From the NCBI RefSeq assembly GCF_003334255.1, contig NZ_QOWU01000033.1: a stretch of DNA of 57,101 nucleotides. One strand, given 5' to 3'. Within the stretch, counting starts at the first letter, position 1, and each line of letters starts with the position of its first letter. Source of the DNA: Escherichia coli. Lineage in GTDB: Bacteria > Pseudomonadota > Gammaproteobacteria > Enterobacterales > Enterobacteriaceae. This document shows positions 48,001 through 51,000 of this stretch, piece after piece. Made by a program: the position numbers.

Positions 48001-51000
48001 CCAGATAATCCGACCACCACTGCATCATCGCTTTGCGGGCTTCTAGGTGCTCTGCCTTATGAATATAAGCCATGCGCACGGTATTGCGCTCCTGATGACT
48101 CATCTGGCGTTCTACTGCGTCCTTTGCCCATAAACCCGATTCCATCAGCGCACTGCATGCCATTGCCCGGAAGCCGTGACCGCAGATATCCTTTTTCGTG
48201 TCGTAACCCATCACCCGCAGTGCCTTATTGACCGTGTTTTCACACATTGGCTTATACGGGTTATGGTCGCCGGGGAAGATCAGTTCATTATTACCGGTGA
48301 TATCCTTAATCTGTTTCAGAATGGCGATGGACTGTTCTGAGAGGGGGACGATATGCGGCATTCGCATTTTTGCCCCGCGGCCGGAATAACGCACGCCAAT
48401 AATGGGTTCTCGCGTCGCGGGTATCGTCCAGACTCGGTTTGTGAAATCAATCTCTGACCAGCGGGCGAAACGCAGTTCACTGGAGCGAATGAACACATGC
48501 AGCATCAGCAGAACGGCATGCCGGGTCAGTTCACGGCCCTGATGATATGCCCCAATACGTTCAAGCAGTTCAGGCAGCCGCTCCAGCGGCAGGGCAGGAT
48601 AGTGCCGTCTGACAGGAGGTGTGGTCACGCCGCCAAGGTTTGCTGCAGGGTTCGTATCGATTAACTCCTGATGGACCGCATGGCGCATTATGTTACTCAG
48701 GTGCTGCCGTGTGCGGGACGCAACCTCCAGCTTTGAGATACCAGTGGCGGGAGCCACCCGGCTTGACCAGCAGATACAGACCGTGAGAATCGGAGACTTT
48801 AAAGGGTTTATCAGAAGGCTTGAGGGTGCGGATTTTTGCGTCGGTAAGGAACATATGGGGGTCACTCCATTATCGAACTAACCTGATCCCAGATTTGACC
48901 ACCAATTTTTCCCGATGCGTAGGGTAAAATCAAAATGCACCGAGAAGAGTTTTCACACTAACCTGTTGAATCAACATCAGATAAAGATTTGCAAGGATGC
49001 ATGAAAACAGAAAATTGGCTCCTCTGACTGGACTCGAACCAGTGACATACGGATTAACAGTCCGCCGTTCTACCGACTGAACTACAGAGGAATCGTGTGA
49101 ACGGAGCGCATATTACTTAGCGGTACCTTGTCTGTCAACACTAAATTTCATAAGCCATTTCAATTGGTTAATTAATCTGCAAAGTTGTTAATTAATGAAC
49201 ATTCGTCGCCGAAAACGAGTCTGTATCATTAGCGTGATGCAGTCTCTGCAAAGGATCTTGTTGATAAAATTGACAGAAACGTTGCCACAATGAAGGGAAA
49301 CGAGGAGCAAAAAGTTCTGGGGCGCTAAAGAAATATTCAGAAAGTACGGCAAAACATTCAGCAGGATCACTGGCAGCATAAGCATCAATGCTCGCTGCAT
49401 TCTCACCAACTAATTCGATTTCTTCCTGAATGTTGTTCATTGCAGCATGAAGATCGTGTTCCCAGCCAGCAACCTCACGCAACGAAATAAAGGGAACTCC
49501 GCTGGCGCGATCGCCGTTACGGGTGTCCAGCTTATGAGCGACTTCATGAATAATCAGGTTAAAACCAGATGCATCAAAAGAATCTTGTATATCCAACCAG
49601 TTCAAAACGATAGGCCCTTGCTGCCAGCTCTGACCTGACTGAACAATACGTTGGTTATGCACCAGACCGATATCGTCTTCCCATTCATCATCGACCACAA
49701 ATGGCGCAGGATAAATTAAGACTTCATGAAAACCATCCAGCCATTCCAGTCCTAACTCCAGAACGGGTAGGCAAAATAGAAGTGCTATCCGGCAGCTTCT
49801 TAATGAATCCAGTTCAAAGCCCTGTAAAGGAACAAGCCGCTTTTGCTGTAAAAAACGTTCGGCAAGAGTGACTAATTTGCTTTGTTCCTGTTCCGTCAGA
49901 CCCGTTAAAAGGGGGATCGATAGTGCTTCCTGCCAGGGAAGGGCAGTTTGATGTGCTGATTCTTGTACTTTCCAGGGCCACTTAATCATCGTTTTGCTCG
50001 CAAACTCGTCACTTGAACAAAATTGCACGGACAGGGACTGTTAAAATGCCAAATTTCCTGGCATCATGGCAACCATCTGAACGGAGAGATGCCGGAGCGG
50101 CTGAACGGACCGGTCTCGAAAACCGGAGTAGGGGCAACTCTACCGGGGGTTCAAATCCCCCTCTCTCCGCCACTTTATCAATGACTTATCTCTTGACTTC
50201 CCGCCTTGCTTTTCCTAAACAGAACAATCGTAGAATATTCTTGAAGGGTTAGATCGTCACTGTTTTCTGTTCGATACTGTGACATTCAGCACTTGATTCG
50301 CTATGGAGCTGACAGGAAGGTTTCGAGCGAAAATCTACAGTTATTCAGTCGTTTTCTTATCGGTCACCATTATTCTTTTAGACATTGATCCTATGAAACT
50401 GCCGCAAAGTTGCTGGCGGGAACTGAAGTTGCGTAGAGAAGGGGTCAATAATTGAGTCAAAAAAGGAACGCGGCCGTCAGATTAAAGCCGCGGGACAAAG
50501 TCCATAATTTCCAAGAGTTGTTGAATTTCCCAGCTTTTTTGAAAGCCTTTGTATCATACTAACAAGTAAAAAAGGTTTAAACACCAAAATTAACCTATAT
50601 TTCTGGTTAGCTTTACCATGACAGATGACTTGCTCCTGGAAACATTTGCGCTGCCAGTCTGTATGGCTGAGTTGTGTATTTATTGTTCGCCTTTTTCGCA
50701 TTTTTTTTCTACAGACATAATAAAAAAGACACGACTCAAGTATGAGCGTGTCTGAGTTTGTCTTACTTATTTGTCTTGGCAAATTATTGTTGTTACTACC
50801 AGGCACTGTTCTGTTAAATAACTGAAGTCAGCGCAAAAAAATCAATGAGACATCATCTCCTCGACCACTTCTTCGCTACTCAACTGATAGGGATAATACG
50901 TTGGCCAGTTTTCCATTTCATTCAATAAAGACTGTTGGGAATCATTACCCATAAAAATGTGAAAATGAGATGATTTTCGTGGTGCAATTATATGATCGCT

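Follow-up and report, generated by a model that had tools for sequence, protein, structure and literature searches.

A common and probably ancestral yodB-less haplotype at the serU-zinT interval of Escherichia coli

In Escherichia coli K-12 MG1655, the genes zinT (b1973), yodB (b1974, putative cytochrome b561), serU (b1975) and mtfA (b1976) follow one another. Read from the tRNA gene, the layout is serU, a 569-bp spacer, yodB, a 342-bp spacer and zinT, and the curated K-12 record has no further gene annotated between yodB and serU. In ST410, the absence of yodB together with the presence of fyuA marks a clone that gained the yersiniabactin island (high-pathogenicity island, HPI) by recombination (PMC10786849). 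A Stx1d prophage is on record at serU-yodB (PMC9729726). LT-IIb prophages also use the serU site. Here, we analyzed the serU-zinT interval of a 57,101-nucleotide stretch of E. coli DNA (assembly GCF_003334255.1, contig NZ_QOWU01000033.1), hereafter the window, in which serU and zinT are separated by 669 bp that do not contain yodB. We conclude, with a probability of roughly 0.88, that the strain carries a common, probably ancestral yodB-less serU-zinT haplotype, that yodB was not lost recently, and that no protein gene is hidden in the interval.

Two haplotypes between serU and zinT

The interval is bounded on the left by serU, a tRNA-Ser gene with anticodon CGA on the plus strand (50083-50172; found by ARAGORN, with an Rfam tRNA score of 57 bits), and on the right by zinT, which encodes a metal-binding protein on the minus strand (50842-51492; a 216-amino-acid (aa) open reading frame (ORF) in our ORF list, named zinT in matching genomes). 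The gap between them is exactly 50173-50841, or 669 bp, and mtfA lies on the far side of serU (49192-50028, minus strand; ORF list). The GC content of the gap is 38.9%, compared with 52.4% for the whole window. All ORFs in the gap are short, with lengths of 27-50 aa on the plus strand and a single 109-aa GTG-start ORF on the minus strand, and none corresponds to the membrane haem protein of about 176 aa that characterizes the cytochrome b561/YodB-CybB family. A tblastn search with K-12 YodB as the query revealed no YodB/cytochrome b561 homologue in the window; the best E value was 0.5, and the interval gave chance fragments only. NCBIfam models produced zero matches for the four longest ORFs of the gap. 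An Rfam search of 49900-51800 at E <= 1 returned the tRNA and sub-threshold chance matches, with the gap itself empty.

These results bear on a sequence-only reading of the same DNA, which had pointed to an unassigned stretch of about 670 bp between tRNA-Ser and zinT. Such a stretch is real, as ARAGORN and the ORF list indicate, and its description as AT-rich, with short ORFs only and no YodB-like frame, was upheld by the GC content, the ORF list, tblastn and NCBIfam. That reading had also placed yodB between zinT and serU in K-12. The MG1655 annotation proves this placement right, and the alternative offered with it, that the gene order was wrong, can be discarded because the MG1655 order matches. 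The TBLASTN search for YodB that it had suggested was run on the window and on the interval, with the negative outcome given above. A synteny comparison, suggested likewise, placed yodB there in K-12 as expected, but many other E. coli carry no gene at this position.

Comparison with K-12 by blastn revealed 96.5% identity over 50083-50619 of the window. Homology stopped at 50619/50620 and restarted exactly at the zinT stop codon, 50842. The zinT-proximal segment in between (50620-50841, 222 bp) occurs in the yodB-less haplotype only and takes the place of 995 bp in K-12, consisting of 122 bp, yodB and the 342-bp spacer. The 222 bp could not be aligned with K-12 by blastn. Local alignment with the K-12 zinT-proximal spacer recovered the hairpin region only, with a score of 36 compared to 20.3 +/- 2.2 for shuffles, and semi-global alignment paired the segment with the zinT-proximal ~220 bp of the K-12 spacer at marginal significance. 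Because the 222 bp are highly diverged and unalignable by blastn, the difference represents replacement by a diverged segment and not a clean deletion. Of the "deletion or replacement" proposed in the sequence-only reading, replacement is therefore correct (222 bp for 995 bp), while a clean deletion is not supported. The identity between the window and K-12, calculated per 100 bp, was 92-94% beside the junction and ~99% in mtfA, and this drop fits an old dimorphism. The gap thus differs from K-12 by a two-haplotype polymorphism, not by a lesion.

We surveyed 5426 complete E. coli genomes for the two forms. The 222-bp form was found in 2305 of them (92.8-100% identity) and the K-12 yodB cassette in 3114; the forms were almost mutually exclusive and totalled 5419. 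The window belongs to the yodB-less haplotype, as it has the 669-bp spacer with 222 bp in place of 995 bp. Its 669-bp interval was 100% identical to that of an independent complete genome, strain MLI023K1. The interval was present at full length in >2280 genomes, among which the 222-bp part differed by up to 7%. Examples without yodB are UTI89 and enteropathogenic E. coli (EPEC) E2348/69, both of phylogroup B2, as well as ST2747, Ecol_881, BH100 and others; in E2348/69, the yodA and mtfA locus tags are consecutive. Examples with yodB are K-12, ATCC 8739, O157:H7 and O111:H8, and the K-12-type strains that we saw included A, B1 and E examples. The view that a gene is "expected" here was K-12-centric, as ~42% of complete E. 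coli genomes are likewise without yodB and resemble the window. This removes a false alarm: the gene is missing only by K-12 expectation, and its absence is an ordinary, already documented gene-content polymorphism.

Gain or loss of yodB

To place the two haplotypes in order, loci were collected in a zinT-anchored scan with one genome per species, which yielded 80 loci. yodB was located within 5 kb of zinT in E. coli-derived loci only. The E. albertii locus has no yodB: a 564-bp spacer separates zinT from serU there, and mtfA follows. This spacer aligned with that of the window over positions 2-224 (75%) and 387-661 (64.6%), running straight through 50619/50620, and its alignment with the K-12 spacer ended at the junction. 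The cryptic Escherichia sp. MOD1-EC7003 (locus L004) is also without yodB. In this genome, a deletion has reduced the serU flank to its initial 146 bp, now joined to a point ~8 bp from the stop codon of zinT. The two minus-strand terminators are gone, as is the conserved block described below, and an element bounded by attR is located upstream. Loss of the terminators and the block implies that the spacer is dispensable in that lineage.

Because collinearity between E. albertii and the yodB-less form extends past the junction and MOD1-EC7003 also lacks the gene, the yodB-less arrangement is probably ancestral, and K-12-type lineages probably gained a diverged zinT flank together with the yodB cassette. 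Two points weigh against this polarity. It is drawn from two outgroup genomes only, those of E. albertii and the cryptic Escherichia, and the 80 loci revealed no donor for the yodB cassette, since none of those from other species has yodB within 5 kb of zinT.

The lack of a foreign donor would favor the opposite order of events, in which the yodB-positive K-12 type was ancestral and the yodB-less allele arose from it by an ancient loss or replacement, reaching B2, D, F and further lineages and, through recombination, others as well. The zinT terminator hairpin also recurs in the zinT-proximal spacer of K-12, roughly as far from the gene as in the window, implying a common zinT 3' flank. We nevertheless consider this order unlikely. 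Neither E. albertii nor the cryptic Escherichia has yodB, and the E. albertii spacer follows the yodB-less sequence through the junction. Furthermore, a simple deletion predicts flanks ~96% identical to K-12, whereas the 222 bp have diverged almost past recognition.

Much less probable still is a small protein encoded in the interval, for which three ORFs were considered. The 50-aa ORF (50303-50455, plus strand) has kept its length in 12 of 13 E. coli alleles, but its variation is mostly amino-acid-changing (~14 such sites compared to ~1 silent site among the 13 alleles). The BH100 allele has a premature stop codon, and the E. albertii sequence lacks the start codon and is frameshifted by indels; on this allele comparison, the ORF was judged non-coding. 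The 27-aa ORF (50742-50825) is hydrophobic and resembles a type I toxin in this respect, but its start lies within the terminator hairpin, and in E. albertii it is cut short at 11 codons. The 109-aa minus-strand ORF crosses both the haplotype junction and the E. coli-specific block, and is therefore impossible in K-12 or E. albertii. None of these ORFs was matched by NCBIfam. Judged from the reading frames and their variation, the gap encodes no protein.

A recent deletion of yodB in this strain or clone, or an assembly artefact, has nothing in its favor except the absence of the gene and is practically eliminated by the identical 669 bp in an independent complete genome, the >2280 full-length carriers, the variation of up to 7% in the 222 bp, which indicates that the form is old, and the lack of any yodB remnant.

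Terminators and a conserved block in the spacer

The hairpin agacacg...cgtgtct, which the sequence-only reading had flagged at 50728-50758, exists but is located at 50727-50753, and it has an ordinary explanation as the predicted transcription terminator of zinT. This intrinsic terminator occupies 50716-50753 on the minus strand, with a stem formed by 50747-50753 and 50727-50733 and an inner 4-bp helix. On the minus strand it reads AGACACG-CUCA-UACU-UGAG-U-CGUGUCU then UUUUUAUUAUG, starting 88 nt past the stop codon. It thus has the composition of an intrinsic terminator, a 7 + 4 bp stem then UUUUUAUUAU, on the strand of the gene. The 134 nt of the minus strand around the hairpin folded with z = -3.27, and 0 of 200 shuffles folded as well. 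Variants among E. coli change the bulge and loop only, a compensatory substitution in E. albertii turns an A-T pair of the stem into G-C, and the K-12 allele keeps the stem within otherwise unalignable DNA, which indicates conservation of the structure, although among few independent sequences. In this strain, zinT transcription would most likely end at 50716-50753. In K-12 (locus L001, 4322-4352), the stem is retained but its tail, GUAUAUUAAU, is weaker and not a U-run, and zinT may read through into yodB in K-12-type strains.

A simple terminator scan called neither of the two minus-strand terminators of the spacer, as their loops and bulge are outside its rules, and its two weak plus-strand calls were not credited. 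Matches of the 35-nt hairpin sequence to free phage genomes were rejected, because the ten IMG/VR matches are prophage calls running into the host flank. In strain HS-02 (locus L091), a 42-bp loss (30 + 12) and a local rearrangement were observed at the equivalent of 50640-50715, just upstream of the U-tract of the zinT terminator.

Nearer to serU, a three-way alignment defined an E. coli-specific block of ~110 bp (50457-50568) that is absent from E. albertii and is accompanied by AAAAAAGG direct repeats at 50459-50466 and 50568-50575. The ~50 bp between the block and the 222-bp segment are common to E. albertii. The block was present in 5418 of the 5426 E. coli genomes and at least 99% identical in 5374, compared to only 2025 genomes at this level for the adjacent control block 50340-50451. 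Among 13 alleles, the number of variable sites per 100 bp was 11.2 to the left of the block, 13.7 to its right and 4.5 inside it; of the five variable sites inside, two are at the edge and three are singletons. At one end of the block lies a second intrinsic terminator on the minus strand (50459-50492), with a stem of 6 G-C and 1 G-U pairs (50469-50475/50486-50492) then UUCCUUUUUU ending at 50459. The K-12 sequence at this terminator is identical to that of the window.

Published K-12 data were placed on the window by a coordinate map that holds for 50173-50619, in which the K-12 position equals 2,093,640 minus the window position. The Term-seq "orphan" 3' end at 2,043,181 (+), with the sequence ...CCCGCGGCTTTAATCTGACGGCCGCGTTCCTTTTTT, corresponds to window position 50459 (Adams et al. 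2021, PMC7815308, Supplementary file 1). This end was reported in two of three conditions, LB at an optical density (OD) of 2.0 and the third condition sheet, and was absent in LB at OD 0.4 (PMC7815308). An Hfq CLASH fragment at 2,043,157-2,043,181 (+), ligated to mreC, has the same end base (Iosub et al. 2020, PMC7213987). For the RIL-seq entry yodB.serU.IGR, 39 chimeric fragments were listed from exponential-phase and 33 from stationary-phase cells, always as the second RNA, with a 6-U tract (Bar et al. 2021, PMC8175672). In K-12, an Hfq-bound RNA ends precisely at the second terminator, and the block probably yields a low-abundance Hfq-bound RNA.

We compared two readings of the block. The first, to which we give close to an even chance, is that it acts as a fail-safe terminator that stops read-through from zinT, or from yodB in K-12, antisense into serU, and that the Hfq-bound fragments are debris of a 3' untranslated region. 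The 3' end indeed follows zinT in the window and yodB in K-12, in both cases on the strand of the gene, and the reads are few. A duplex predicted by duplexfold between the candidate RNA and ompF, a RIL-seq partner inferred from matching table values, had an energy of -30.6 kcal/mol, no better than shuffles (-36.5 +/- 3.1), a value that was uninformative on target pairing but would be in keeping with this reading. Three observations speak against a terminator and nothing else. Strong conservation continues for ~90 bp upstream of the hairpin, which hints at a role beyond termination, possibly that of a small RNA; in RIL-seq chimeras the RNA invariably takes second place, a position typical of small RNAs; and a promoter-like site, TTTAAA-17-TATGAT (50581..50553), is invariant and correctly placed. 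This site matches at 9 of 12 positions in AT-rich DNA where 8 such sites were found compared to 4.4 expected.

The second reading, which we regard as tentative and rather doubtful in its full form, is that the block is a small-RNA gene. It would have its own promoter and a transcription start site near 50546, and would produce a minus-strand RNA of ~88 nt ending at 50459, bound by Hfq and at least 99% conserved with or without yodB; the block itself would have been inserted between the AAAAAAGG repeats after the split from E. albertii. The candidate, an unannotated Hfq-associated small RNA at 50459-50546 (minus strand) with a predicted 5' end, has a U-tailed terminator with a 3' end mapped in K-12, and its association with Hfq comes from published K-12 data only. 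Its 88 bp contain only 2 singleton substitutions among the 13 alleles. The whole candidate folded marginally better than shuffles (z = -1.28), and its support thus comes from the terminator and the published data, not from global structure. It has no Rfam match and is not in the curated K-12 annotation, literature searches found no named small RNA near yodB or zinT, and the accessible part of the SMRT-Cappable-seq data contained no entry at this site. Counting against a small RNA are the small-RNA scores of yodB.serU.IGR, 0.010 and 0.046, which are below the 0.1 cut-off (PMC8175672) and fit a fail-safe terminator instead, and the EPEC RIL-seq tables, whose accessible part held no entry for the spacer.

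Transcription that reads through from zinT, or a short transcript begun near 50546 at the putative promoter, would end at 50459, and termination there would keep antisense transcription out of the convergent serU. The only non-trivial remainder of the gap is an unannotated, species-wide conserved 3' end of an Hfq-associated RNA, present in published K-12 tables.

Attachment-site flank, neighboring island and described systems

The serU-proximal part of the gap is shared with lambdoid phages. The shared segment (50111-50450) comprises the 3' 62 nt of serU (nt 29-90) and the first 278 bp of the gap; in phages ev099 (2439-2778), mEp332 (2441-2778) and PhiR70_1 it is ~96% identical and lies between a tail-fibre assembly gene and the integrase. 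In several E. coli genomes, islands with integrase genes separate serU from the spacer, and a copy of the tRNA 3' end (attR) marks their boundary. Such copies adjoin integrase genes in loci L084 and L092, and IMG/VR prophage calls at serU terminate in the same 62-nt attR. With the 3' part of the tRNA carried by phages and attR repeats in lysogens, serU has the properties of a tRNA-linked attachment site. The serU-proximal part of the gap thus flanks an active attachment site for phages and islands, at which the window carries no integrated element. Host-like homology of this length next to attP suggests that chromosomal DNA was captured through imprecise excision, or that phages and chromosome continue to exchange sequence.

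No terminator structure was found in the plus-strand 128 nt after serU, which folded worse than shuffles (z = +2.07). At 50193-50194, the window has a tandem CC-to-TT change relative to 12 other aligned alleles, creating a -35-like TTGACT 21 bp after serU with no good -10 behind it; ~630 genomes are at least 99% identical over 50186-50297 and probably share the change. In FDAARGOS_1373 (locus L087, 3001-3945), the serU flank ends after 207 bp and is fused to fliP, a junction that implies a deletion or rearrangement of ~20 kb removing zinT, msrPQ and neighboring genes.

To the left of mtfA, a frameshifted tyrosine integrase (47939-48865 and leftwards) adjoins tRNA-Asn (49016-49091), with ybtS beyond. 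The genome with the identical interval has ybtS and the frameshifted integrase at asnT just to the left as well, and its annotation identifies this element as the Yersinia HPI at asnT. As the HPI at asnT lies beside the window's serU-zinT interval, the linkage between HPI and yodB-less form described in ST410 applies here. yodB is thus an accessory gene whose region, next to an integration hotspot at a tRNA gene, has long existed as two haplotypes, and the yodB-less form can move with the neighboring yersiniabactin island by recombination, as reported for ST410. On the other side of zinT, a palindrome resembling repetitive extragenic palindromic elements (51685-51750, between zinT and msrQ) gave sub-threshold naRNA4 matches of 35.8 and 23.1 bits on the two strands, compared with a gathering score of 59.5.

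The elements of the interval can be set beside described systems. Like the Hfq-dependent small RNAs known from RIL-seq and CLASH, the candidate has a U-tailed terminator cross-linked to Hfq, stands second in chimeras, was detected in stationary phase and in minimal medium, and is strongly conserved within the species. Unlike them, it is unnamed, unannotated and not in Rfam, has few chimeric fragments and a sub-threshold score, and is absent from E. albertii. Both minus-strand hairpins resemble rho-independent terminators in having G+C-rich stems then U-tracts, and the second has a mapped 3' end in K-12; the zinT hairpin departs from the usual form by its bulged two-part stem and long apparent loop. 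As at other tRNA attachment sites, phages carry the tRNA gene from its anticodon loop to its 3' end and islands are found between serU and the spacer elsewhere, whereas the serU site of the window is empty and the shared homology is unusually long, reaching 278 bp past the tRNA. Compared with the K-12 yodB locus, the window lacks yodB and its 995-bp cassette and has the 222 bp unalignable by blastn instead, but it has the same position and the same flanking genes, mtfA, serU, zinT and msrQ, and the 447 bp beside serU are 95.7% identical.

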